DNA from: Patescibacteria group bacterium
GTDB lineage: Bacteria; Patescibacteriota; Microgenomatia; UBA1400; PJMF01
Direction of reading: 5' to 3'
Length of the DNA stretch: 47,495 nt
Assembly: GCA_039934415.1 (NCBI GenBank)
Contig: JBDTME010000001.1
Coordinates: 1-47,495, forward strand
Shown here: positions 5,517 through 24,594 of the stretch, one piece after another
Layout of the letters: each line of letters opens with the position of its first letter
Numbering within the stretch: the first letter of the stretch is position 1
Made by a program: the position numbers and the translations under genes
The notes under the pieces: model-generated
What the model saw: the letters and a program-made list of their open reading frames with translations, nothing else
Database searches by the model: none
Told to the model about the DNA's origin: nothing

Positions 5517-7385
5517 TCACGGTACTCTTGCGTAAGCTGTGATCCAGTCGATTTCCACGTTTCCGTTAGCATTTGCGTTCGGACAGGCTGTCGAAAGACA
5601 GGATTCAGTTTGAATAACCCAGAACATTGGTGTATTTGGTACTCTAGTCTTTGGGTTGCCCAAGAGTTTACCGTCTAGAATAAATCTGGTGTCATTTGGT
5701 AACCATTCGATACTGGCTGTGTGCCATTGAGTATCATCAAAACGTGTATTTGAGAAATAAACGTCTTGATCATCACCTGAACTACCATTTTGTCTGTGGT
5801 GAGCAGCAAAGATGCGGTCACCAAAATCACCTTCCGGGAAATCAATCTCACCATCTCTCGGCCACTGTTGACTCTTAGGCCAAAGTAACCAAGCCATCTT
5901 AAAACCTTTTAGTGATGTGCTGTTATTTTGATAGACACGGAAGCGAACGGTGTATTTACCATAGAGTTGTGCGCCTTCTGGATCACTTCCCATTTTAACA
6001 AACAAGCCCGTGCCCATTGGTGTTCCACCTTCGGTATGAACATTTTCAATGAGTACTCCATTTTTGACATACATAACTTTGGATGGGTAGTAGCGCGATG
6101 GTTTACCTTCAAACTTACCAGCGGTATCACCTTCTCCATCACCATAGATGCGGGTGAAGGAATCTTTATAAACGCTCATAAACTTACCCGGCCCTAAATC
6201 AACATTTCGGCTAAAGTTTTCTTTCATGATTTGTTTCCAACCTGGGAGGTCACCGACTGGCATTGCTTCTCCAGAAGGATCAACTCCTGAAGTGGATCCT
6301 GGCGTTGGAGTCGGAGCAGTGGTCACTGAAGGTGCGGGGGTTGGCGTTCGAGTTGGCGTCGAGCTAGGTGTTTTAGTAGCTGTTGGATTACTGACACCTG
6401 TAGCTGATGGTTTGACCGGTGTAGATGTTGCTCCAGTGCTCGAACACGTCATCAAAAATTGCGAGACAAGTATTGAATAATCAGTTAAATCAACTTGGCC
6501 ATCATTATTAATATCAGCCCGAGGATTGGTAGGTGGTACTTTAAAGAAGTTTTGTGCCAAAATACTGTAATCACTCAAATCAACAACTTGATCTTGATTA
6601 ATGTCACCGGTACACGACGATGGGGAGCCGTTCGGAGTTGCCGTTGGAGGAGTGCTGATGTTGGCATCCACTCGTAAATTATCAAAGGACAAAACACTTG
6701 ATGACGAAGTACACGTTCCTCCAAGATAAGATCGAAGGCCGACCTTACCTGCATTTTGGAGTTCAGCTTGGGAATCAGTCACATCGATCATCCAGCCGGT
6801 TGGCTCAGTCGTGTTCTCTGCCCATACCTTTGCACGGAGCGTGGTTGGATTGGTACCTGTAACAACGACACGAAGCTTGTAATTCTTGTTCGCTGAGATT
6901 GTGCCCAAAGGAATGCTAGGGGTAAAGGTAGCAGTCTGTGTGGAGTTGATCAGTTTGCCCCAATACATTCTACCGACACCACTTGAATTTACTCCAATAT
7001 CTAGACGATATGACAAATCAACCTTTTGATAGCGTGAGGTGTGGAAGAGAAAATGTTCACCGCTCGCTGGCAAACTTTTAAAATTAAACGAAACTGTAGT
7101 ATCAGAGCTTGTATCACTCAGATTGAGTAACTCGAAACCGATTGTTGAATTACATTGTGCGAAATTGAAATTTGCAGTTCCCCCACTCACATTCATTCTC
7201 GATTCATTTGTCAGTGCATAATTCGTATTTGCTACTGATTCCAGTCCACTGCTCACCGGTGTATCAAACGCATCGGTAAACACAGCCATGACTCGTGCTG
7301 GAGAAAAACTGAAAAATATCACGGCTATACCGCAAATAACAACTGAACGAGAAAATGAGTGTTTGAGGGAGTCTTTGAATTGCAT
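5517..7385 (-). CDS. Secreted modular protein: signal peptide, beta-jelly-roll domain, type I dockerin, P/T/S linker, GH16 catalytic domain
   Basis: Duplicated Ca-binding repeats GDINQDQVVDLSDYSIL and ADINNDGQVDLTDYSIL (about 6444-6614); TPTRTPTPAP linker; GH16 ExDxxE motif EIDFPE at 5832-5849. Confidence 0.85.
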   Translation of the reverse strand: MQFKDSLKHSFSRSVVICGIAVIFFSFSPARVMAVFTDAFDTPVSSGLESVANTNYALTNESRMNVSGGTANFNFAQCNSTIGFELLNLSDTSSDTTVSFNFKSLPASGEHFLFHTSRYQKVDLSYRLDIGVNSSGVGRMYWGKLINSTQTATFTPSIPLGTISANKNYKLRVVVTGTNPTTLRAKVWAENTTEPTGWMIDVTDSQAELQNAGKVGLRSYLGGTCTSSSSVLSFDNLRVDANISTPPTATPNGSPSSCTGDINQDQVVDLSDYSILAQNFFKVPPTNPRADINNDGQVDLTDYSILVSQFLMTCSSTGATSTPVKPSATGVSNPTATKTPSSTPTRTPTPAPSVTTAPTPTPGSTSGVDPSGEAMPVGDLPGWKQIMKENFSRNVDLGPGKFMSVYKDSFTRIYGDGEGDTAGKFEGKPSRYYPSKVMYVKNGVLIENVHTEGGTPMGTGLFVKMGSDPEGAQLYGKYTVRFRVYQNNSTSLKGFKMAWLLWPKSQQWPRDGEIDFPEGDFGDRIFAAHHRQNGSSGDDQDVYFSNTRFDDTQWHTASIEWLPNDTRFILDGKLLGNPKTRVPNTPMFWVIQTESCLSTACPNANANGNVEIDWITAYARVP

Positions 7386-7441
7386 TATGTACCTAGCATG
7401 TCATGACAAGGTAGGAAAGGTCAAGCGTAAAAATGATCATT

Positions 7442-8095
7442 CTATCGCTTCCATCTCGAAAAGAAACCAGCGAAGCTCCAAGTTTCGAGCACACTCAATT
7501 TATGAGGTAATTGCATTCCCAACTTTGCAGGGAAGGTTACACTCTTAGGTGTGAGGATGTATATGAAATGTTTGGTTTCAATCGACTCTATTCTTCCTGA
7601 TTTTGGATTCTTATCACGAGCTGAGTCCCACCATCTTTTCTCAAACCATTCGAGTGAAAAAGTGCGGGGCTTGCGAGCAAAATCGGGATATGGATCAGCA
7701 ATCCGAATACTGTCTTTGCGAGGATCAATATTAATTACCACGCTATAGTGTCCTCTATCTCCTGATGATCGTCTTTCTTCTTCTGGAGTGTTATAAAACA
7801 AACCTTGCCAATTTATGGCCACAGGCAATTTGTATTTTTTGATGAGTGTGTGTAAGTCCTCGGAAGTAGCACCTTGCTTAAACCAGAACTGGAGGTTGGG
7901 GGTTAATTTTTGTACAGCCTTGGCTAATTGTTTTGGTCTACTCCCTCTACTTTTGATCAGCTTACCAATTCGTGCTGCCGCCACAATTTCGTCTTGAGTG
8001 AAGTTTTTTTTCCGATGGGCATACAGCAATTGAAGCACTGCTGGACCACAGTGAGAGTCAGTTTGCTGGACTACTCGAGGTAGACGGATACTCAT
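7442..8095 (-). CDS. Peptidase C39-like (papain-fold) protein
   Basis: QQTDSHCGPAVL catalytic Cys, GHYSVV His and IADP Asp. Confidence 0.75.
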   Translation of the reverse strand: MSIRLPRVVQQTDSHCGPAVLQLLYAHRKKNFTQDEIVAAARIGKLIKSRGSRPKQLAKAVQKLTPNLQFWFKQGATSEDLHTLIKKYKLPVAINWQGLFYNTPEEERRSSGDRGHYSVVINIDPRKDSIRIADPYPDFARKPRTFSLEWFEKRWWDSARDKNPKSGRIESIETKHFIYILTPKSVTFPAKLGMQLPHKLSVLETWSFAGFFSRWKR

Positions 8096-12040: not shown

Positions 12041-12610
12041 TTACTCGTTTGCTCGAGAAACGTACTCTCCAGTATCTGTGTCGATAATGAGGTAATCGCC
12101 TACTTTACTGAATAGCGGTGCTTGGACGATCAGCCCTGTTTCGAGTGTCACTGGTTTCTTTGGCGCATTGACCCGATTACCTGCCGTAGCGTCTTCAGTG
12201 TATGTGACTTTGAGTCGGACTTTGAGTGGGACTCGAACACCGATAGCTTTTTCATCGTAAAAAAGAATGTACACCTCACTGTCACTGGTTAAGTAACCGA
12301 GTTTGTCTTCGATTAGTGCTCGAGGAATGGTGACTTGTTCGTAGCTTCGAGGATCCATGAATGCTACTTCTTCTTGATCAGAATACAAGAACTGCATTTG
12401 TCGGGTATTTACATCCAATTCTTCTACTGACTCGGTCGATTTGAAAGTGAAGTCGATCGAATTGCCAGTTTTGACACTTTTCAAACGTGCGCGGGTAAAA
12501 GCAGAACCTTTGCCAGGACTAACGAACTCCGTTTTGGTGACGATGTGTGGGTCGTTTTTGAATAGAATGTAACTGTTTTTGCGGATATTCCCGCCTTTAA
12601 TGATTCCCAT
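12041..12610 (-). CDS. efp: Elongation factor P
   Basis: SPGKGSAFTR loop with the modifiable Lys (codon 12509-12511); KPVTLETG and IIDTDTGEYVSR. Confidence 0.97.
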   Translation of the reverse strand: MGIIKGGNIRKNSYILFKNDPHIVTKTEFVSPGKGSAFTRARLKSVKTGNSIDFTFKSTESVEELDVNTRQMQFLYSDQEEVAFMDPRSYEQVTIPRALIEDKLGYLTSDSEVYILFYDEKAIGVRVPLKVRLKVTYTEDATAGNRVNAPKKPVTLETGLIVQAPLFSKVGDYLIIDTDTGEYVSRANE

Positions 12611-12679
12611 ACCATTCTTCCTCAGTTGTTTTGTGTATCTGAAGCTTACATCTTACTCGAGGTTTTTACAAAAAGCAAT

Positions 12680-13726
12680 TCAAGAAGGAAACAATTCATT
12701 GATGGGAAACAACAAGGTGTCTTCAATGGAAGGTACGTTTGCCAGAAGCATTACTAATCGATCTACTCCAATAGCAATGCCCGTGCATTCTGGTAAGCCT
12801 GATTTCAAGGCATCTATAAAGTCTGTATCTAGTTCGTACTTTGTTTTACCCAGAGCATCACGCTCTCTAAGTTCTGCTTTGAGTCGTTTTTCCTGTTCTT
12901 CTCCGTCGATTAATTCTGAGAAAGCATTTCCGAGCTCGATTCCAGCAAGATATATTTCAAATCGTTCAGCGAATTCAGGGTCGCTGGCTTTACGTTTGGA
13001 TAGGGCCGCTTGTGAAAGTGGATAGTCATAGATGATGGTAGGGCGAGTTTTATCGAGTTTTGCTTCTATCTCATTGAGAAAGATTTGGTTGTAGACCTGT
13101 TCCCAGGTTGTGTCAGAAGTGACTTGGTACCCTTTCTTTTTGGCAACTTCAATCAGTTTTGTCTCTGAGAGTAACTCTTCTCTGCTTACTCCGGCAAACT
13201 TGAGAAATGCTTGTTCGACTGAGTAACGGGGAAAAGGCAGAGTTAAATCAATGTCCAGATCTTGATACTCAAAACCATTGCGTCCCTCTTTCCCATACCT
13301 CGCCTCGGCAAGGGCTGGTAACATTTCTTCCATGTCTTTCATCAAGGCCGTGTAATCAGCATTTGCTCGGTAATACTCTAAAATAGTGAATTCGGGATTG
13401 TGTCTACTACTTCTCCCCTCTTTATTGCGAAAACTTTTGCAAATCTGAAAAATATCCCCAAACCCAGCCGCAAGCAGTTTTTTCATGGCATATTCAGGAC
13501 TAGTTAAAAGATAAGCTGGATATGAGTCACCTTCAGCAAACTTCACTGTTGTATCAAACACTTCTAAATAAGGTTCCGTCCCTGGAGATTTGACTAATAA
13601 TGGAGTCTCCACCTCATGGAAACCCCGAGTTTTGAAAAAGACACGTAAACTATCAATAACCTGTTCGCGAACCAAAAATTGCTGTTTCAATCCATCATTT
13701 TGTTTGATCTTTTGCCAGTTTTTCAT
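12680..13726 (-). CDS. epmA: EF-P lysine aminoacylase (GenX/PoxA)
   Basis: LLTSPEYAMKKLLAAG, FRNKEG..RHNPEFTILEYY, ERFEIY..GIELGNAF and GIAIGVDRL. It has no anticodon-binding domain and lies next to efp. Confidence 0.95.
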   Translation of the reverse strand: MKNWQKIKQNDGLKQQFLVREQVIDSLRVFFKTRGFHEVETPLLVKSPGTEPYLEVFDTTVKFAEGDSYPAYLLTSPEYAMKKLLAAGFGDIFQICKSFRNKEGRSSRHNPEFTILEYYRANADYTALMKDMEEMLPALAEARYGKEGRNGFEYQDLDIDLTLPFPRYSVEQAFLKFAGVSREELLSETKLIEVAKKKGYQVTSDTTWEQVYNQIFLNEIEAKLDKTRPTIIYDYPLSQAALSKRKASDPEFAERFEIYLAGIELGNAFSELIDGEEQEKRLKAELRERDALGKTKYELDTDFIDALKSGLPECTGIAIGVDRLVMLLANVPSIEDTLLFPINELFPS

Positions 13727-13943: not shown

Positions 13944-14375
13944 ATGAACATACTTTCAAAAGCCTTTCCAACTGAGGGTGGTCAGACAACTTTCGGTCTA
14001 CATCTTATGCTCGACGCATACGGGGTGGATCCTTCAAAACTCAGTGACATGAAATTGATATTTAAATATTTGAATGATCTTCCTAAAATTATTGACATGA
14101 AAAAATTGACAACCCCCTACGTTGTTGATTGTGACGCAACAGAAAGCGGAAAAGATCCTGGCGGTATTTCAGGATTTGTGATGATTGCAGAATCCCATAT
14201 CTCAATACATACATTTGCTAAGCGAGGTTTCTTCACGATGGATTGTTACTCATGCAATAACTTTGAAGAAGAAGTTGAAGAGTTACTCGCTTACACGAAA
14301 CAAATATTTCCTTACACTGACTCTGAACTCCAAGTTGTGAAACGTGGATTGAAGTATCCAGTGGAAAATGTGTAA
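13944..14375 (+). CDS. speD: Pyruvoyl-dependent S-adenosylmethionine decarboxylase family proenzyme
   Basis: GLHLMLD and GISGFVMIAESHISIHTF (E-S self-cleavage site); DCYSC. Confidence 0.85.
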   Translation: MNILSKAFPTEGGQTTFGLHLMLDAYGVDPSKLSDMKLIFKYLNDLPKIIDMKKLTTPYVVDCDATESGKDPGGISGFVMIAESHISIHTFAKRGFFTMDCYSCNNFEEEVEELLAYTKQIFPYTDSELQVVKRGLKYPVENV

Positions 14376-14379
14376 AAAC

Positions 14380-15291
14380 ATGTTGCCAATTTTCCCAAAT
14401 TTTAAAAATTTAGAAATTACTGATAAACCAGATCTTGAAAAAATTACTGCACAGTTCCCTCCTTATTCTGATTTTAATTTCGTAAGTCTCTGGAGTTACA
14501 ATACTCTAGAAGATTTTCAACTTTCTTTATTAAATGGGAATTTGGTTTTAAGAATGAATGACTATATCACTTTGGAACCCTTCTATACCTTTATAGGTAT
14601 TGAAAACGTTACTGAGACGATTAGAACGTTGTTACAATTTTCACAGGACAGAATTCAACGCTCAGAACTAAGAGTGATCCCAGAGATAGATCTGTCAAAA
14701 GATGCTCAGAGACTCCATGCAGAATTTGACATTTTTGAAGATCGAGATTGTTTTGATTATATCTATTCATTAGATTTGTTAGTTGCAGCTGAAGGCGGAC
14801 AGTACAAAGTTTTAAGAAATATGTTGAGTAAATTTGTAAGAACTGTTTCTTCATATTCCTTGACTTTAGTTGATTTGCAAGATGAAAATGTGCAACAGCA
14901 AATAATAGAGTTAATACACGTGTGGGGTGCTGCTCAAGGCAGAGAGAAAGATGAGATAGAGAACGAATTAAATGGAGTAAAAAGATTGCTGGATTCTTCT
15001 CAGTACTTAAACTTAATTTGTTTATGCTTATATATTGAAGATCATTTAAAAGCTTTTTTTATTTCAGAAAAGACTCACGATGAATATGCTATGGCACACT
15101 TTCGTAAGGCAGATCCCTCTTTTCCTGGTATCTTCCAGTTCATTGATTATGAAAATGCGAAGTATATGAAGCTTTTAGGTTGTAAGTTTTTAAATTACGA
15201 GCAAGATCTAGGTATCCCTAATTTAGTTAAATCAAAACAATCCTTACATCCAGTAAAATACTTAAAGAAATACAAAATTACTCTAAAATAA
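14380..15291 (+). CDS. Stand-alone DUF2156 (aminoacyl-phosphatidylglycerol synthase C-terminal-like) protein
   Basis: DYIYS, AHFRKADPSFPGIFQFI and LNYEQDLGIPNLVKSKQSLHP; no membrane flippase domain. Alternative start at 14368. Confidence 0.8.
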   Translation: MLPIFPNFKNLEITDKPDLEKITAQFPPYSDFNFVSLWSYNTLEDFQLSLLNGNLVLRMNDYITLEPFYTFIGIENVTETIRTLLQFSQDRIQRSELRVIPEIDLSKDAQRLHAEFDIFEDRDCFDYIYSLDLLVAAEGGQYKVLRNMLSKFVRTVSSYSLTLVDLQDENVQQQIIELIHVWGAAQGREKDEIENELNGVKRLLDSSQYLNLICLCLYIEDHLKAFFISEKTHDEYAMAHFRKADPSFPGIFQFIDYENAKYMKLLGCKFLNYEQDLGIPNLVKSKQSLHPVKYLKKYKITLK

Positions 15292-15524
15292 CTTGGTTTA
15301 CCTAAGCAGTGTTTACTCTCAGAATCGCAAAATTTGTCTTGATAAAGCATTAGACAATTTCAAACATACATTTGTTTGAATATTTACTTGTCGTACTTGT
15401 CTATCAAATTTGCCAATGGATTTGAGGGATCCAAATCCCATTTAAACAGTTCAAAGTGTTTCCTTCTTTACACGCTCTTGTCTTTATTGATATGCTCTTG
15501 TGAAGTGATCTGTTGGTACCACAT

Positions 15525-16337
15525 ATGTTGCAAAATTTAAAAAAAGAATTCACAGCAAAAGTCGCTCTCCTAATTTTTTTGTTCTTCACAGCGTTTTGGT
15601 TAACCCTTTTTCTTTTCGAGAAAGATAGTATTTGGCATGCAGCTTTTGGCAGTAGCTATGGTGTTTTGGCTGCATTTGGTGGGTTTATTGGTCTGAGTAT
15701 TGCTCAGAGATGGGGTGGATTTAAAAGTATTATGGGAAAGTCAGTCTTGTTCTTTTCTTTCGGTTTACTGCTTCAAACTTTTGGACAAATTGCCTACACA
15801 CTTTATATATATGTACTAAAGATCGAGTTGCCATATCCTTCGATTGGAGATATTGGTTATTTCGGGAGCATACCTTGTTATGTATATGGAGTCTTTTTAT
15901 TAGCAAAAGCCTCTGGTGTTAGGTTATCAATTCAAAGGCTTAGAGGACAACTTCTCTTCTTAATTCTTCCTGGTGTTTTGTTATTGCTTTCTTATTTCAT
16001 GTTTTTGCAAGGATATGTTTTTGATTGGTCTAACCCATTGGCTATATTTTTGGATTTTGGTTACCCATTTGGTCAAGCTATTTATGTTTCACTTGCTTTT
16101 TTAACATACCTGCTTTCAAGAAATATTCTTGGAGGTATTATGAGAAACAAGATTTTGTTTTTGTTGTTTGCTCTAGTAATTCAATATCTATCTGATTTCT
16201 CTTTCTTATACTTAGTTGATAAAGGTTGGTGGTTTGTTGGTGGAGTTAATGACTATATCTATTTAGTAGCATACTTTTTAATGACACTTGCACTGATTCA
16301 ACTAAAGACTGTTTCTGATACGTTAACAAAGAAATAA
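15525..16337 (+). CDS. Stand-alone multi-TM sensor-like membrane protein (7-8 TM)
   Basis: Hydrophobic throughout; the PYPSIGDIGYF motif resembles membrane domains usually fused to kinases or cyclases. Confidence 0.75.
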   Translation: MLQNLKKEFTAKVALLIFLFFTAFWLTLFLFEKDSIWHAAFGSSYGVLAAFGGFIGLSIAQRWGGFKSIMGKSVLFFSFGLLLQTFGQIAYTLYIYVLKIELPYPSIGDIGYFGSIPCYVYGVFLLAKASGVRLSIQRLRGQLLFLILPGVLLLLSYFMFLQGYVFDWSNPLAIFLDFGYPFGQAIYVSLAFLTYLLSRNILGGIMRNKILFLLFALVIQYLSDFSFLYLVDKGWWFVGGVNDYIYLVAYFLMTLALIQLKTVSDTLTKK

Positions 16338-16339
16338 GC

Positions 16340-16618
16340 ATGCCCGACATTTATGTCTCGTTAGCCAGCAAAATAATTAAGGATCAGGAAGCTGTGATTG
16401 GTCCGCTTGCTTGGAGTGAGGCTGGTAAGGTGAAGGGTATCAAGGTAATTGATCATACTGTGGAAATCAGTGGAGATGGAAAACAGACGCTTGGGAAATT
16501 AGTGAGTCAATATGAAGGGTTGTTTGGCAGAGCATCAGTCGAGGTGTGTAGAGATGCAATCCGAAAACTGATTGTAGATGTTGATCCAAAAGAGTTACCT
16601 GATATTCTTCTTCAATAG
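16340..16618 (+). CDS. Small soluble hypothetical protein, 92 aa
   Basis: Starts 2 nt after the upstream stop; IIKDQEAVIGPLA...YEGLFGRASVEVCRDA looks like a conserved fold. Confidence 0.8.
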   Translation: MPDIYVSLASKIIKDQEAVIGPLAWSEAGKVKGIKVIDHTVEISGDGKQTLGKLVSQYEGLFGRASVEVCRDAIRKLIVDVDPKELPDILLQ

Positions 16619-16673
16619 TACAATTTTTTCCTTAATGGTCCACAACTTTGATTCTTAAACATAGTATACTGGT

Positions 16674-18041
16674 ATGATCATGGCCGATCAATCAACTTCT
16701 CAGCTTCAGAATGTGACTCAAGAGCTGTACAAGAAGAACTTGGAGTTGGTGAATGCAAACAAAGAGATGACTTTGTTGCAAAGGCTGTATGAATCGATGG
16801 CGGTGAAATTAAACCTCGAAGAGTTAACTCAAGAATTTATCGAAATCATTGTGAAGCAATTAAACTTTCCAGGGGGTTTGGTTACGATTCGCCAACCAGG
16901 AAAACAAAGTTTACAATACCTCGCGTCTGACTTCGAAAAGAAGAATCAAGATATCCACAAAATATTTCATTCGAAACAGGCTGATATGCACGTAAGCCTT
17001 CATCATGATACAAACCTGTTGGTGAAAGCATTCCATCAACAGAAAGAACTCACAACTGAAGATCCTTTAAAAGTGCTTGTACCTCTTCTTTCTCCTGAAA
17101 ATGCAAAGATCATTGCTGAAAAAGGAGAGTTTACTTCTGCTATTACCTATCCTTTGAGCTTCGGTACCCATCAAATTGCCGCATTGTCTATTTTTTTCAG
17201 ACGAAATGTTTCAGAGCTTTCACACTTTGAGCGAGAAGTCCTCAATCGAGTTGCGACAGTGTTTGGAGTGGCTCTGGATCGTGTGATGATTTACCAAGAT
17301 TTAAAATCTGCAAATAAAAAACTCAAGATGCTGGATAAACTCAAAGACGAGTTTGTTTCTATAGCGTCACACGAGTTGCGCACTCCCCTGACTGCTGTCA
17401 AAGGATATTTATGGCTGGCATTGAACAAGTCTCCCACTCCTCTAGCAAAAGAAGTCGAAACAAACTTGAAGATTGCTCACGACTCCACTGAGCGGTTATC
17501 ACGTATGGTGGAAGACATGTTAACGATCTCACGTATTGAAGGAAATCGTTTGAAGTTAGAAGTTGAAGAGTTCGATCTCAGTGAGTTGACCAAGCAGGTC
17601 TATGACGAATTGTCGATCCGAGCATCAACCAAACACATTGACTTTACGGTTAATTTGCCCCCTACACCCATTCATTATAAAGGTGATAAGGAAAAAATTC
17701 GAGAGTGTATCATCAATATTACTGGTAATGCGCTCAAGTTTACCCCAGAACAAGGTAAGATCAGTATCACGCTTGCCCAAGTGCGTGAGTCAATTACGAT
17801 CAAAATAGCAGACACTGGACCTGGTATTTCAGCAGAAGATAAACATAAATTATTCCAAAAGTTTTCGAAGCTGGACAGTTCATATCAAAAAGTCAAAGAG
17901 AGTGGCACTGGACTAGGTTTGTATATCACGAAACAAATTATCGACATGCATGGAGGTTCAATTACCGTTGATTCGCAACTCGGCGAAGGCACTACGTTTG
18001 GCATCGTTTTACCCTTAAAATCCAAATTGGAGGCACAGTAG
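16674..18041 (+). CDS. Soluble GAF-HisKA-HATPase sensor kinase
   Basis: H-box SIASHELRTPLT, N-box NITGNALKFT, DTGPGI and GTGLGL; no TM segment. Confidence 0.93.
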   Translation: MIMADQSTSQLQNVTQELYKKNLELVNANKEMTLLQRLYESMAVKLNLEELTQEFIEIIVKQLNFPGGLVTIRQPGKQSLQYLASDFEKKNQDIHKIFHSKQADMHVSLHHDTNLLVKAFHQQKELTTEDPLKVLVPLLSPENAKIIAEKGEFTSAITYPLSFGTHQIAALSIFFRRNVSELSHFEREVLNRVATVFGVALDRVMIYQDLKSANKKLKMLDKLKDEFVSIASHELRTPLTAVKGYLWLALNKSPTPLAKEVETNLKIAHDSTERLSRMVEDMLTISRIEGNRLKLEVEEFDLSELTKQVYDELSIRASTKHIDFTVNLPPTPIHYKGDKEKIRECIINITGNALKFTPEQGKISITLAQVRESITIKIADTGPGISAEDKHKLFQKFSKLDSSYQKVKESGTGLGLYITKQIIDMHGGSITVDSQLGEGTTFGIVLPLKSKLEAQ

Positions 18042-18044
18042 TAT

Positions 18045-18437
18045 ATGTCAGACAAAAAAAAGATTTTTCTCGTTGAAGACGATGATCGGTTATTACAACT
18101 CTATAACCAATTACTCGTGGCAGATGGTTATGAAGTAGAAACATGCAACAACGGTTTGGATGCTTTGACCAAAATGCAGGAAGGTGGTTTTGATTTGGTG
18201 CTGCTTGATATCATGTTACCAGGAAAAGATGGTTTGGAAATTCTGGAAGATATTCAAAAGAAAAAACCAAAAAATCCTATTCGCTCGATTATCTTACTCA
18301 CGAATCTCGCAAAAAATGAAACTATTGCGCGTGCCCTAAAAAACGGTGTTGACGGGTATATTATCAAAAGTCGTTACTCACCAGAGGAATTTCTCGCTGA
18401 AGTAAAAAAAACACTTGAAGGAAAACCGATTTCTTGA
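18045..18437 (+). CDS. Single-domain response regulator (REC only)
   Basis: LVEDD, LLDIMLPGKDG, LTN and YIIK. Confidence 0.93.
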   Translation: MSDKKKIFLVEDDDRLLQLYNQLLVADGYEVETCNNGLDALTKMQEGGFDLVLLDIMLPGKDGLEILEDIQKKKPKNPIRSIILLTNLAKNETIARALKNGVDGYIIKSRYSPEEFLAEVKKTLEGKPIS

Positions 18438-20521
18438 TCTCAATGACTGCTGCCCAACGTCTTCAATTACATGAAGACCCAGATCTCTATAAAAAAGTAT
18501 TTCAACTCTCTCCAGAGGCTATTGTCATCATTGACCGTACTGGCCATATCATAGAGATGAATGATCGGATGACTGAATGGTTGGGATACCCAAAAAAAGA
18601 CGTACTCCATAAGCACCTCCTCCAATTACCATTTCTGACACTCAAAAATAAACAGCTACTGATCAAGAACTTTTTAACACGAATATCTGGTAAAGAACGA
18701 TCAGAGTATCAAGCTGAATTTTTGACAAAGGATGGACATGTTCGGATAGGCAAGATCAAAGGCGCATTGATTCGAGATGCCTCAGGTCATGTTGTGGCTG
18801 ATTTGGCAATGATCACTGAAGCGACCCAAGAACTCCGAGAAGAAACAGCAATTCGGAAAAAAGAAGAAATTCTGGAAGCAGTGAACTACTCTGCCCGTAC
18901 CTTCTTAAAATCACAAGCAAATCAAGCAGATTATGAAAAAGTACTCAAATCAATCGGTGAATCTGCTTCTGCTAGTCGAGTAGTATTGGTGATTAATGAC
19001 CTCTTGGGTCAACGTTACGAGTGGGCTGCCCCAGGAATTGCATCAATTGTCTTAGATAAGAAATATCCCAATCTTTTTCAAAAAGCAAACGAGTTATCAG
19101 AGTTTTCTAAGAAGCTGGAGGACAATAACATTATCTTCGGTATTGAATCAGATTTTGACAAAGATGTTCAAGCTGTTTTAAAGCGATATAAAATAAAGTC
19201 GTTTGTTCTACAACCCATTTTTGTCAACAAAAAGTGGTGGGCCTACTTGTGTATCCATGACTGCTTAGAAGAAAGAAAGTGGTTGTCAGAAGAGATTGAT
19301 GCGTTGGTTGTCGCATCCAAAATCATCGGTGCTGCGATGGAGAAAAACTTGGTTGAACTGAAACTGCGAGAAACTGTTGAGTATTGGAGACATGAAAAAG
19401 AGCGAGTGACGGAAGAAATCGCAAATACCCAAAAATTCAAGCAAGCAGTGGATAGTGCTACTGACGGGGTGGTAATTACGACAGTTGATCGAAAGATCAT
19501 TTATATTAACCGTGCATTAGAAAACATGACTGAGTACTCGTCGGCAGAAGCAGTCGGAAAAAATTCTGATTTTCTGACAATAGCTAAGACACCTCATCAA
19601 ATTTTAACGAAGTTATGGGAAACACTTGATGCTGGTCAACCGTTCAACTCTGATGAAGTTGTGATGAGTAAGAAGGATGGAACTGAACTGCCAGTTCGGT
19701 TATCTGTGTTTGCGATCAATGAGAAAGGCAAACCTCAATTTTTTGTTGGAATACTTGAAGACATCACACGACGTCGTGAAATTGATCGCATGAAAACTGA
19801 ATTTATCTCGATTGTTTCTCACCAACTCAACACTCCTCTATCAGCCATGAAATGGTTTTTGGAATTGCTACAGATGGGAAAAGCCGGACCTCTCTTACCG
19901 AAACAACAAGAGTTTGTCCAAAATTTGATCGATTCTAATATTCGAATGATTGCGTTAGTACGGTCATTACTCAATATTAGTCGCATTGAATCAGGCCGGA
20001 TAATTATCGATCCTCACTTGACTGATATACGGGTGTTAATTGATGATGTCTTAAAAGAAGTAGCACCTTTTTTTGAGAAGAAGTCTCAGAAGATCAATGT
20101 GAATATCGATGAAAATCTGTCAAAAGTGATGCTTGATCCTCGTTTGATTAGGAATGTGTACTTAAACCTGCTTACCAACTCCTCAAAATACTCACCAGAA
20201 GGAACGGAAGTAGATATCAATATTTTTCAAAAAGATGACGAGCTTGTTTCTCATGTTATCGATCATGGATATGGGATACCCAAAAATGATCAAGATAAAA
20301 TCTTCACTAAATTTTTTAGAGCAGCGAATGTTGTTCGATTGGAAGCTGACGGCAGTGGTTTAGGTATGTACTTGGTCAAAATAGTGGTAGAGTCATCAGG
20401 TGGGGAAATTACATTGAACAGTGAGGAAAATAAAGGTACAGACGTCGGTTTTGTACTGCCACTTAAGGGTGTGAAACCAAAATCAGGTGATGTCTTCCTT
20501 GATCAAAACGCTTATTCGTGA
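18434..20521 (+). CDS. Soluble PAS-GAF-PAS-HisKA-HATPase sensor kinase
   Basis: Two PAS-like segments, H-box SIVSHQLNTPLS, NLLTNSSKYS, DHGYGI and GSGLGM. Alternative ATG at 18443. Confidence 0.92.
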   Translation: MISMTAAQRLQLHEDPDLYKKVFQLSPEAIVIIDRTGHIIEMNDRMTEWLGYPKKDVLHKHLLQLPFLTLKNKQLLIKNFLTRISGKERSEYQAEFLTKDGHVRIGKIKGALIRDASGHVVADLAMITEATQELREETAIRKKEEILEAVNYSARTFLKSQANQADYEKVLKSIGESASASRVVLVINDLLGQRYEWAAPGIASIVLDKKYPNLFQKANELSEFSKKLEDNNIIFGIESDFDKDVQAVLKRYKIKSFVLQPIFVNKKWWAYLCIHDCLEERKWLSEEIDALVVASKIIGAAMEKNLVELKLRETVEYWRHEKERVTEEIANTQKFKQAVDSATDGVVITTVDRKIIYINRALENMTEYSSAEAVGKNSDFLTIAKTPHQILTKLWETLDAGQPFNSDEVVMSKKDGTELPVRLSVFAINEKGKPQFFVGILEDITRRREIDRMKTEFISIVSHQLNTPLSAMKWFLELLQMGKAGPLLPKQQEFVQNLIDSNIRMIALVRSLLNISRIESGRIIIDPHLTDIRVLIDDVLKEVAPFFEKKSQKINVNIDENLSKVMLDPRLIRNVYLNLLTNSSKYSPEGTEVDINIFQKDDELVSHVIDHGYGIPKNDQDKIFTKFFRAANVVRLEADGSGLGMYLVKIVVESSGGEITLNSEENKGTDVGFVLPLKGVKPKSGDVFLDQNAYS

Positions 20522-20564
20522 TGTAGTATACAAGAAACTTTTTTGTTTCATTTGAAAGGTATTT

Positions 20565-20930
20565 ATGAAAAAAGTGTTAGTCGTCGAAGACGATAAATTT
20601 TTAGCCAATGCATATCGAGCTGGATTTGAAGGTGAAGGCCTCGAGGTAAGTCTAGCCTTTGATGGTGAGGAAGCGCTGGCAATGGCTAATCAAACAAAAC
20701 CAGATGTGATTATTTTAGACATTTTAATTCCTAAAATTGATGGATTTAGCGTACTCCAGCAGTTGAAGGCGAATAAAGAGTTAGAGCACATTCCTGTCAT
20801 CATTGCTTCAAATCTTGGTCAAAAACAAGATATCGATAAGGGATTGGAATTGGGAGCGACCGATTTTATTATCAAAAGTGAGTCGTCAGTGACAGAGATT
20901 TTGAATAAAATCAAAAACGTATTGAAGTAA
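20565..20930 (+). CDS. Single-domain response regulator (REC only)
   Basis: VVEDD, ILDILIPKIDG, ASN and FIIK. Confidence 0.93.
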   Translation: MKKVLVVEDDKFLANAYRAGFEGEGLEVSLAFDGEEALAMANQTKPDVIILDILIPKIDGFSVLQQLKANKELEHIPVIIASNLGQKQDIDKGLELGATDFIIKSESSVTEILNKIKNVLK

Positions 20931-22854: not shown

Positions 22855-22975
22855 TTTTCAAGAAAGTCAATTATACGCTGGAAAAGCTGGTTTGCCAATC
22901 TAGAGAAGTATTGCCATTCGTCACGATACACTCTCGATCATTGACTCCTGAGTCCAAAAGGTCTTGAATGAAGTA

Positions 22976-23923
22976 ATGATAGACACCTTTAACGCTCCCA
23001 CTCCAATGCAATCAGGCCCGACTCCTTTGCCTACACGACCTGATCCTTGCAAGGACGGGACCTGTGATAAGTGTCTTAAAGGTGGAATGCCGATGAAGAA
23101 GGAAATTCTGTCATTTTTATTGATCTTATGTATTGGTGCAATGACGGTATTGTTTGTGTTGTGGGTAAATGAGAAACGCCAGCTCTCTCAGCTGACCAAA
23201 CAAAATGCAAGTATGTCACAAGATTCCACCACTTCAGAAATGGATGCTGATAAAGTTGTCAGCACTGCTGTTCCCAGTCCTAAAGTTATGAGTCAACTTA
23301 TTGATTTACCTAAACCGAACTTCAAAGGTGTTTTAAGCGTTGAAGAAGCTCTTTTTACTCGTCGAAGTCGTCGAGAGTTTTCATCTCAACCAGTTTCTCA
23401 GTTTGAACTCGGTCAAATATTGTGGTCTGGTCAAGGTGTGACTGATGACTTAGGTCATCGTACTTCTCCATCGGCTCGCGAAGGTTATCCATTTACGGAG
23501 TACGTTGTCGTTCGTAATGTAGAAGGTCTTCAGCCTGGTTTGTATCAATATCTGCCAGAGAAACACCAAATCGGTTACATCGGATTGGCAAATGCTGGGG
23601 AATTATTAACAGCCGCAGGAGTTCAAGATAACTCCCAAAATGCTCCCGTTGTGATTGCCTTAAGTGGAGCGATTGGGAAGATGGTCAAGAACTTTCCGAC
23701 GAACGCAACTGAAGTGACGATGATTGAAGCCGGTCACATTGGTCAGAACATTTACTTGCAAGTGGAATCAATGGGAATGTCCACCGTCGTGACGGCGGGA
23801 TTTGATGTTGCTAAAGTTGGTCAGGCTTTGCAGTTAGATCCATCTGAGACTGTAGTCTATTTAATTCCATTGGGTCATCGATCAACTGTTACACCAACTC
23901 AATCCCCGGAAAATCAACTATGA
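22976..23923 (+). CDS. Membrane-anchored SagB/ThcOx-type nitroreductase (FMN) domain protein
   Basis: TM segment ILSFLLILCIGAMTVLFVLWV, then RRSRREFS, RTSPSA and IEAGHIGQNIYL. TTGACT-17-TTGAAT-6-ATG favours a start at 22976. Confidence 0.85.
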   Translation: MIDTFNAPTPMQSGPTPLPTRPDPCKDGTCDKCLKGGMPMKKEILSFLLILCIGAMTVLFVLWVNEKRQLSQLTKQNASMSQDSTTSEMDADKVVSTAVPSPKVMSQLIDLPKPNFKGVLSVEEALFTRRSRREFSSQPVSQFELGQILWSGQGVTDDLGHRTSPSAREGYPFTEYVVVRNVEGLQPGLYQYLPEKHQIGYIGLANAGELLTAAGVQDNSQNAPVVIALSGAIGKMVKNFPTNATEVTMIEAGHIGQNIYLQVESMGMSTVVTAGFDVAKVGQALQLDPSETVVYLIPLGHRSTVTPTQSPENQL

Positions 23924-24594
23924 AGAAATATATTACTTTAGTGAGTTTCACGTTATTTCTTGGATTGCTTTTTGTCTCTACTCAAGCTGTTTTTGCCCAA
24001 GCCAAACAGTTTACGACTGAAGAGTTGAAGCAGTTTGATGGAAAGAGTGGTCATAAGGCTTATTATGCCTACGAAGGTAAAGTCTACGATGTGACAGGTA
24101 GTCGGCTTTGGAAAGAAGGTGAACACTACGGGTTGCAGGCAGGTGAAGACTTAACTGGGAAAATGACAAGTGCTCCACATGGGACTGAAGTCTTTGCTGG
24201 ATTTGAGGTCATGGGGACATATGGTGCAATGCCAACAACATCAGCAGTACAAACCCCGGTCGTCACTCAATCTCCACTTGGTGTCCCCTCAACAACTCCT
24301 CAACGGGCATGGTTTGAAAGTCCTATTCGTTTGCTGAACATTTCAATTTTGGGGTGGACTGGCATTGTATTAGGTATCTTCTTTGTTTTAACCTTTGCCA
24401 CTTGTTTTGCGATGCCTTGGGCAAAATTACCTTTGCCATGGGTTGGCTCTCGACCAGGTCCTGATCCATTAGATGCTTCATTCCGACACATGACTTGGAC
24501 GTATATTCACAAATATTTCGTTTGGATTACCGTTATTCTCGGTATCGTTCACGGCATCTTAGGATTCATGCAAATACTGGGTATCTACCTCTAA
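23920..24594 (+). CDS. Cytochrome b5-like heme domain with signal peptide and C-terminal His-bearing TM helices
   Basis: FTTEELKQFDG, GKVYDVT, GEH...AGEDLT...APHG; the TM helix HKYFVWITVILGIVH has two His 14 residues apart. Confidence 0.85.
   Translation: MKKYITLVSFTLFLGLLFVSTQAVFAQAKQFTTEELKQFDGKSGHKAYYAYEGKVYDVTGSRLWKEGEHYGLQAGEDLTGKMTSAPHGTEVFAGFEVMGTYGAMPTTSAVQTPVVTQSPLGVPSTTPQRAWFESPIRLLNISILGWTGIVLGIFFVLTFATCFAMPWAKLPLPWVGSRPGPDPLDASFRHMTWTYIHKYFVWITVILGIVHGILGFMQILGIYL

Follow-up and report, generated by a model that had tools for sequence, protein, structure and literature searches.

The question raised by this locus is how histidine kinases that lack a membrane segment of their own could be coupled to a membrane protein encoded beside them, and how many of the surrounding genes belong to the same system. 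The locus lies in a 47,495-nt stretch (hereafter the window, meaning the whole of the DNA analyzed) of contig JBDTME010000001.1, positions 1 to 47,495 of the forward strand, in assembly GCA_039934415.1 of a Patescibacteria group bacterium, a member of the candidate phyla radiation (CPR). Six co-oriented genes at 15525-20930 encode a multihelix membrane protein, a 92-amino-acid (aa) protein, two soluble histidine kinases, and two stand-alone receivers; a previous reading of the DNA (the original prediction) had described them as a single signaling cassette. All six open reading frames (ORFs) were found on the plus strand, and the gaps of 2, 55, 3, -4, and 43 nt between them were reproduced. Our analysis suggests that the first three genes (15525-18041) probably encode one membrane sensor histidine kinase split into three polypeptides. 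The three parts are coinherited across the CPR and also occur fused, and the catalytic residues of the kinase are intact. The features concerned are as follows.

15525..16337, plus strand: putative sensor domain protein with eight transmembrane (TM) helices, hereafter the TM protein; 270 aa from ATG 15525, 274 aa from TTG 15513
16340..16618, plus strand: 92-aa acidic protein, a putative cytoplasmic domain; 141 homologues, alignment, AlphaFold2 (AF2) model
16674..18041, plus strand: HK455, the probable cognate soluble histidine kinase (455 aa); N-terminal helix, GAF-like domain, dimerization and histidine phosphotransfer (DHp) domain with His233 (codon 17370), catalytic and ATP-binding (CA) domain; Pfam
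16725..16748, plus strand: LYKKNLEL signature helix motif within HK455, a candidate docking or continuation element after the 92-aa domain
18045..18437, plus strand: RR130, stand-alone receiver (130 aa); Pfam Response_reg alone
18434..20521, plus strand: HK695, second soluble kinase (695 aa), apparently lineage specific; PAS-GAF-PAS-DHp (His463)-CA; Pfam; without the signature helix
20565..20930, plus strand: RR121, second stand-alone receiver (121 aa), apparently lineage specific; Pfam; orthologue only in locus L006

Searches with Pfam confirmed the domain content ascribed to the kinases and receivers. The two window kinases match HisKA with E values of 1e-17 and 6e-17 and HATPase_c with E values of 2e-28 and 2e-22, and their phosphoacceptor residues are His233 in HK455 and His463 in HK695. 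The N (NITGNALKFT), G1 (DTGPGI), and G2 (GTGLGL) boxes of HK455 are intact; its GAF_2 match, at 24.6 bits, falls under the cutoff of 28.6 bits, and the GAF domain is clearly detected in HK455 homologues. HK695 has the G1 (DHGYGI) and G2 (GSGLGM) boxes, and the N-box pattern used gave no match in it. RR130 (E value of 7e-24; active site D12/D13, D55, T86, and K108) and RR121 (2e-24; D9/D10, D52, S82, and K104) consist of Response_reg alone, and neither has an effector domain. As had also been claimed, neither kinase has a TM helix, the highest Kyte-Doolittle means over 19 residues being 1.21 and 1.17, compared with 2.61 in the TM protein. An anchor of the BceS/LiaS type (two TM helices with a minimal loop) is likewise absent, as no hydrophobic segment occurs in HK455 or HK695. 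Judged by these sequence features, the window kinases and receivers clearly belong to the HisKA two-component superfamily.

The conservation of the locus was surveyed with a pattern scan of one genome per species, which yielded 123 loci; 80 of them were retained and five exact look-ups were added, giving 80 loci after de-duplication. In essentially every locus with enough upstream DNA, the 92-aa gene is either immediately preceded, on the same strand, by a gene for a TM protein homologue or fused to one. Kinase linkage was counted in the 67 loci with at least 2 kb of downstream sequence, a kinase being termed adjacent if it starts at most 600 nt after the start of the 92-aa gene. By this definition, a kinase is adjacent in 52 of the 67 loci, and one is found within 5 kb in 61. 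Thus, kinases usually accompany the TM and 92-aa genes; the original prediction had named their usual absence as evidence against it. The order TM protein, 92-aa protein, kinase recurs in 80 nonredundant species-level genomes, and the arrangement is therefore not due to chance.

The survey expected of the cassette upheld its first three genes but not the rest. Only 7 of the 80 loci have a receiver within 5 kb, and the full six-gene layout is repeated only in L006, the nearest relative, which also has the only orthologue of HK695, as it does of RR121. Consequently, the conserved unit is three genes rather than six, contrary to the proposal of one six-gene unit, and HK695, RR130, and RR121 appear to be lineage-specific add-ons. 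As far as sampled, the split sensor seems restricted to CPR bacteria. All 141 homologues of the 92-aa protein have 87 to 111 aa and come from sources that are either CPR labeled or unlabeled metagenomic. The contigs of L006, L010, L024, L049, and L054 carry a CPR-type module and are labeled Gammaproteobacteria or Pseudomonadales; these are probably mislabeled bins.

The same parts also occur within single polypeptides. The TM and 92-aa proteins are fused in frame in four loci (L043, L059, L061, and L067; 371 to 385 aa) and in 20 of the 150 best TM-family representatives. Furthermore, one protein of 796 aa (P0186) is colinear with all three window proteins: residues 3-264 correspond to the TM protein, 270-357 to the 92-aa domain (39% identity to the window protein), and 357-793 to a kinase with GAF, HisKA, and HATPase_c domains, which shares 27% identity with HK455 over 444 residues. 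HK455 is, in turn, colinear with the C-terminal 440 residues of P0186.

The kinase itself carries a mark of this association. A signature N-terminal helix, LYKxNLEL, is found in 56 of the 57 kinases adjoining a 92-aa gene, is kept in cognate kinases displaced from that gene by inserted genes, and in P0186 immediately follows the 92-aa domain; neither HK695 nor the other second kinases of the loci have it. Nineteen of 56 adjacent kinases are sensorless, comprising the helix, DHp, and CA alone (264 to 301 aa), and the other 37 carry a GAF-like domain. The phosphoacceptor His is conserved in all 58 aligned kinase sequences. Since the sensorless kinase is always encoded after the same two proteins, it is hard to deny that those proteins are its input. 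One cognate kinase of a different build (L014:10624-12990; 788 aa) is extended at its N terminus by about 350 residues ahead of the signature helix.

These observations bear on the simplest alternative, that the six genes are unrelated neighbors, with two membrane or hypothetical genes that happen to precede two cytoplasmic two-component pairs of the ordinary kind. The 55-nt gap before HK455 would be compatible with it, and the promoter and terminator scans of the operon were uninformative, with counts no higher than the shuffle expectation. However, a gene order conserved in dozens of species from many CPR candidate phyla, the existence of fusions, and a family-specific helix in the kinase make mere adjacency extremely improbable.

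According to the original prediction, the membrane protein senses in trans via a small adaptor. Sensing in trans within a functional unit of these two proteins and the first kinase is well supported by the linkage, the fusions, and the 19 sensorless kinases among 56, but the independence of the adaptor is not. The recurrent fusion with the TM protein implies that the 92-aa protein is a domain of the membrane protein and not a free adaptor, and a more fitting reading makes it the cytoplasmic C-terminal domain of that protein, encoded separately. Its AF2 model (predicted local distance difference test [pLDDT] of 91.7) has a helix-helix-hairpin-helix-helix arrangement, and the GPLAW and YExLFGRAS motifs are near-invariant in the family alignment. 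The window protein has no match in Pfam or NCBIfam, 30 family members have none in Pfam, and no significant fold or sequence neighbor was found in the PDB. Kinship with H-NOX was considered and rejected: the Foldseek matches cover only the N-terminal halves of H-NOX proteins at an E value of about 1 and a TM-score of about 0.5, which is noise, and the H-NOX (HNOB) heme domain has about 180 aa, compared with 92 aa here and no Pfam match. A DNA-binding role is unlikely, given the acidic character of the protein (isoelectric point of 5.3).

The TM protein, for which the N termini of homologues favor ATG 15525 as the start, belongs to a family of 823 representatives in an exhaustive representative search. 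Its AF2 model (pLDDT of 96.7) has eight membrane helices. Family-wide, the number of Lys plus Arg residues per even (cytoplasmic) loop is 1.67, 0.85, 1.68, and 1.37, against 0.17, 0.28, 0.69, and 0.13 for the odd (outer) loops. These counts predict that both termini are cytoplasmic, which fits the presence, in fusions, of cytoplasmic domains at each end. Conservation is highest at Y104-P105-S106, D109, D177, Y180-P181, D224, and D243, a cluster of Asp, Tyr, and Pro that, by helix position, falls in the outer half of helices 4, 6, 7, and 8; the cytoplasmic loops carry conserved WGG (63-65) and GG (203-204) motifs. A tandem pair of TM domains can also follow a TrmB winged-helix domain, and the TM domain likewise follows NB-ARC/STAND NTPases; such varied combinations are typical of a sensor module. 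In some loci, second TM-domain paralogues lie a few kilobases upstream of the main module. These variants (TrmB tandem, NB-ARC/STAND, and second paralogues) include P0121, P0132, P0162, L054:4699-6036, L022:6396-7256, L025:6438-7292, and L077:5773-6582.

No described family accounts for this protein. It has no match in Pfam or NCBIfam, and a fold search of the PDB returned only generic seven-transmembrane-helix (7TM) receptors (G protein-coupled receptors and rhodopsins) at E values of 0.02 to 0.1 and TM-scores of at most 0.48; PDB-sequence profile searches of the family and Pfam scans of 75 members gave nothing consistent. A rhodopsin or heliorhodopsin identity, prompted by PMC8612252, was discarded given the lack of a Pfam match, the eight predicted helices, the absence of Lys among the columns conserved at 85% or more, and the low TM-scores (at most 0.48) of the rhodopsin folds. 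The membrane part of MprF was likewise discarded, as none of the 75 TM-family members matches LPG_synthase_TM (PF03706) at an E value of up to 1. The window protein matches zero Pfam or NCBIfam families, those of MASE, 5TMR-LYT, 7TMR-DISM, MHYT, and HAAS_TM included; sensor-domain matches among the 75 members are scattered, single, chance ones (e.g., HAAS_TM in 1 of 75, E value of 0.026). The separation from described membrane sensor domains was judged by matches to Pfam and NCBIfam models. With both the TM and 92-aa families lacking Pfam, NCBIfam, and PDB matches, the suggestion of an undescribed system holds. No description of the module was found in the literature on CPR two-component systems or on DUF2156 with decarboxylases, and the module is not described in the Lipocone superfamily preprint.

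As for output, the receivers near the module, in the nine loci with a nearby receiver, are all stand-alone (121 to 163 aa), which is in keeping with the lack of an output domain pointed out in the original prediction. One directly follows the kinase in L006, L010, and L015, and one is nearby in L024, L028, and L054. In the window subfamily, defined by the H-box HELRTP/HELRAP, a stand-alone receiver is usually adjacent or within 6 kb. RR130 is the likely phosphoacceptor of HK455 in the lineage of the window. Output may proceed by protein contact, by a DivK-like action of RR130 on HK695, or by phosphoryl transfer to a distant regulator.

A related proposal treats all six genes as a chemotaxis-like cassette, in which a receptor acts through an independent, CheW-like adaptor on a soluble kinase and the receivers contact pili or a secretion apparatus directly. 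The division of labor among receptor, small protein, soluble kinase, and stand-alone receiver does parallel that of methyl-accepting chemotaxis protein (MCP), CheW, CheA, and CheY, and no nearby receiver has an output domain. Nevertheless, the likeness is limited to this division of labor. No MCPsignal, CheW, or CheA Hpt/P5 domain was found with Pfam in the six proteins, 75 TM-family members, or 30 members of the 92-aa family, and no domain is homologous; the kinase is of the HisKA type rather than a CheA. Recurrent fusions join the small protein to the membrane protein, as befits a detachable receptor domain. In addition, the receivers and second kinase are not conserved with the module, and no pilus or secretion gene is linked to it, either near the cassette in the window or among the recurrent neighbor clusters. 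We therefore consider this arrangement distinctly unlikely.

What the module may sense was approached through its neighborhood. The ORFs within 6 kb of the 92-aa gene were clustered, the cluster representatives were annotated, and the recurrent families were then counted with profile hidden Markov models. The recurrent upstream genes encode LPG_synthase_C (DUF2156) proteins, EamA-family transporters, and decarboxylases of three unrelated families (a pyridoxal phosphate-dependent Orn/Arg type, an AdoMet_dc-like pyruvoyl type, and PvlArgDC). Of 58 loci, 54 have at least one of decarboxylase, EamA, and LPG_synthase_C in the 5 kb upstream, and 39 have some decarboxylase there; LPG_synthase_C is directly upstream of the TM gene in 24. 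These conserved upstream partners are absent from the original prediction. Two of them are present in the window, where their genes overlap by 8 nt and the second ends 221 nt (TTG 15513) or 233 nt (ATG 15525) before the TM gene.

13944..14375, plus strand: AdoMet_dc-like pyruvoyl decarboxylase, upstream neighborhood; Pfam
14368..15291, plus strand: soluble LPG_synthase_C (DUF2156) protein; Pfam

The recurrent cluster of decarboxylase, EamA, and LPG_synthase_C (an aminoacyl-tRNA-dependent transferase fold), seen in the window (13944-15291), L001, L005, L028, and other loci, possibly represents an undescribed CPR pathway for amines or aminoacyl transfer. The replacement of one decarboxylase by a nonhomologous one argues for selection on the association over mere inherited synteny. 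This replacement and the outward-facing acidic and aromatic cluster of the TM protein suggest, with low confidence, that the signal could be an external cationic amine or amino acid, pH, or envelope charge, tied to the decarboxylase, EamA, and LPG_synthase_C genes. A more specific and speculative version, to which we assign a low probability, would make the eight-helix domain a receptor for a cationic amine such as agmatine, with the neighbors making, modifying, or exporting that amine. CPR bacteria at large would then have an autocrine or host-sensing system composed of two undescribed domains, and stand-alone receivers, not transcription factors, would provide its output.

The neighborhood also admits readings in which the TM protein is not a sensor. 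It could be a membrane enzyme or transporter, for example for amines or aminoacylated lipids, whose activity or flux the kinase reads, as BceS does with BceAB, or which the kinase regulates. The four conserved Asp residues, together with Tyr, Ser, and Pro, could form a catalytic or transport site, the linkage to decarboxylase, EamA, and LPG_synthase_C genes is tight, and signaling-domain fusions of membrane enzymes are known (Lipocone preprint). However, the protein resembles no transporter or enzyme family in Pfam, NCBIfam, or the PDB, its best fold matches, weak as they are, are 7TM receptors, and its fusion partners are all signaling or regulatory (kinase, winged helix-turn-helix [wHTH], and STAND NTPase), which leaves the enzyme or transporter reading improbable.

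Alternatively, the TM and 92-aa proteins might work with LPG_synthase_C as a split, MprF-like machine for lipid aminoacylation, with the TM protein as anchor or flippase and the kinase as a neighbor or regulator. MprF synthase domains normally need a membrane part, and LPG_synthase_C sits directly upstream of the TM gene in the window, as in the 24 loci counted above. This reading is very unlikely, given that no TM-family member matches LPG_synthase_TM even at the permissive threshold, that LPG_synthase_C is missing from more than half of the loci and often lies on the opposite strand, and that a kinase accompanies the pair much more regularly and is also found in fused form.

Returning to the split sensor kinase, it can be compared with described systems. 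With classical HisKA systems that have membrane-embedded input (MASE-type, 5TMR-LYT, and 7TMR-DISM), it shares the DHp/CA core with a phospho-His, a multihelix membrane input without a large periplasmic domain, and, in P0186, the order of juxtamembrane transducer, GAF, and kinase. It differs in that the input (8-TM) and juxtamembrane (92-aa) domains match no described family and in that, in most genomes, the sensor is distributed over two or three polypeptides and the kinase has no TM helix. With BceAB-BceS, LiaF-LiaS, UhpC-UhpB, PstSCAB/PhoU-PhoR, and H-NOX/HnoK, it has in common a kinase without a stimulus domain of its own (here 19 of 56) and a reliance on separately encoded proteins of the same operon. 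Except for HnoK, those kinases are membrane anchored, and they all work with transporters or known sensor folds, whereas the kinase here has as its partner a dedicated 8-TM domain with which it elsewhere forms a single polypeptide. Similarities to the control of decarboxylase/antiporter genes by CadC/ToxR-like proteins lie in a membrane-integrated sensor encoded beside a decarboxylase and a transporter and in the TM-domain paralogue P0121, whose fusion to an N-terminal wHTH gives a ToxR-like layout. There is, however, no sequence kinship, the output here is a histidine kinase, and regulation of the decarboxylase genes is suggested by the neighborhood only.

Taken as a working model, the input module would be the eight-helix membrane protein, with both ends in the cytoplasm and a conserved cluster of Asp, Tyr, and Pro in its outer half. 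The 92-aa protein would be its juxtamembrane domain, in the position that HAMP holds in ordinary kinases, and the soluble kinase would join the two through the LYKxNLEL helix. A stimulus at the outer face would alter the TM bundle, and the change would reach the kinase helix via the WGG and GG loops on the cytoplasmic side and the 92-aa domain, setting autophosphorylation at His233. In the Microgenomatia-like lineage of the window, the phosphoryl group would then pass to RR130, which would act by binding a partner and not DNA. HK695 and RR121 would constitute a second system, cytoplasmic and with PAS and GAF domains, that was added to the operon in this lineage, and RR130 may cross-regulate it.

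It is important to consider the points that weigh against this model. P0186 is a singleton on one short-read assembly contig and is consequently supportive but not decisive, and a targeted search with a chimeric query found no fusion of the 92-aa protein with a kinase. The outer placement of the acidic cluster follows from helix boundaries and the positive-inside rule rather than from model coordinates. In most lineages, no receiver lies near the module, and the pairing of HK455 with RR130, rather than with RR121, is taken from gene order alone. The identity of the signal is drawn from gene neighborhood only, which could reflect inherited synteny. Finally, no kinase is found within 5 kb in 6 of the 67 loci, including two TM and 92-aa fusions from Colwellbacteria. 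In this group, the fusion (L059:4508-5632 and L061:9146-10261) or the separate pair (L045) occurs without a kinase up to 10 kb downstream; either the kinase is encoded elsewhere or the TM/92-aa pair is able to act alone.

The remaining observations concern the surroundings of the locus. The rest of the window, with SecA, seryl-tRNA synthetase, class I lysyl-tRNA synthetase, elongation factor P (EF-P), TypA/BipA, and a Znu transporter, is that of an ordinary small-genome bacterial chromosome, and no Rfam family or tRNA was found across the window. By its homologues, the organism falls within the Patescibacteria/CPR, closest to genomes of the Microgenomatia type. A repeat search of the 221-nt leader before the TM gene gave only short two-copy matches. 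Shortly before the TM gene, at 15461-15500, an imperfect 20-nt tandem direct repeat (TCCTTCTTTACACGCTCTTG / TCTTTATTGATATGCTCTTG) overlaps with a promoter-like site that has an extended -10 element (15467-15496); the repeat is a possible operator but does not exceed chance expectation. On the minus strand, EF-P is encoded beside a 348-aa class II aminoacyl-tRNA synthetase paralogue without an anticodon-binding domain (12041-13726), as would be expected if the paralogue were the EF-P lysylation enzyme EpmA/PoxA. Also on the minus strand (5517-8095), a 622-aa protein with dockerin type I and glycoside hydrolase family 16 domains is encoded beside a peptidase C39-like protein. Downstream of the cassette (22964-24594), the gene for a nitroreductase-family protein, with an N-terminal extension that has a hydrophobic, TM-like stretch as judged by eye, overlaps by 4 nt that of a membrane protein with a cytochrome b5-like heme/steroid-binding domain.

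These results leave the known principles of two-component signaling unchanged. They define two domain families that Pfam, NCBIfam, and the PDB do not hold and probably show, in a clear natural case, that one sensor kinase can be made up of one, two, or three polypeptides. The linkage to amino acid decarboxylases, a drug/metabolite transporter, and an aminoacyl-tRNA-dependent transferase provides a concrete, testable lead on the signal. Kinases are very rare in CPR genomes (0.29 per 100 genes and 0.16 in Microgenomatia; PMC10805038), and given this scarcity, a kinase module conserved across many candidate phyla is likely a principal sensor of the environment or host. If the TM protein were indeed an amine receptor, the module may be the main route by which these episymbionts sense their chemical state or their host.

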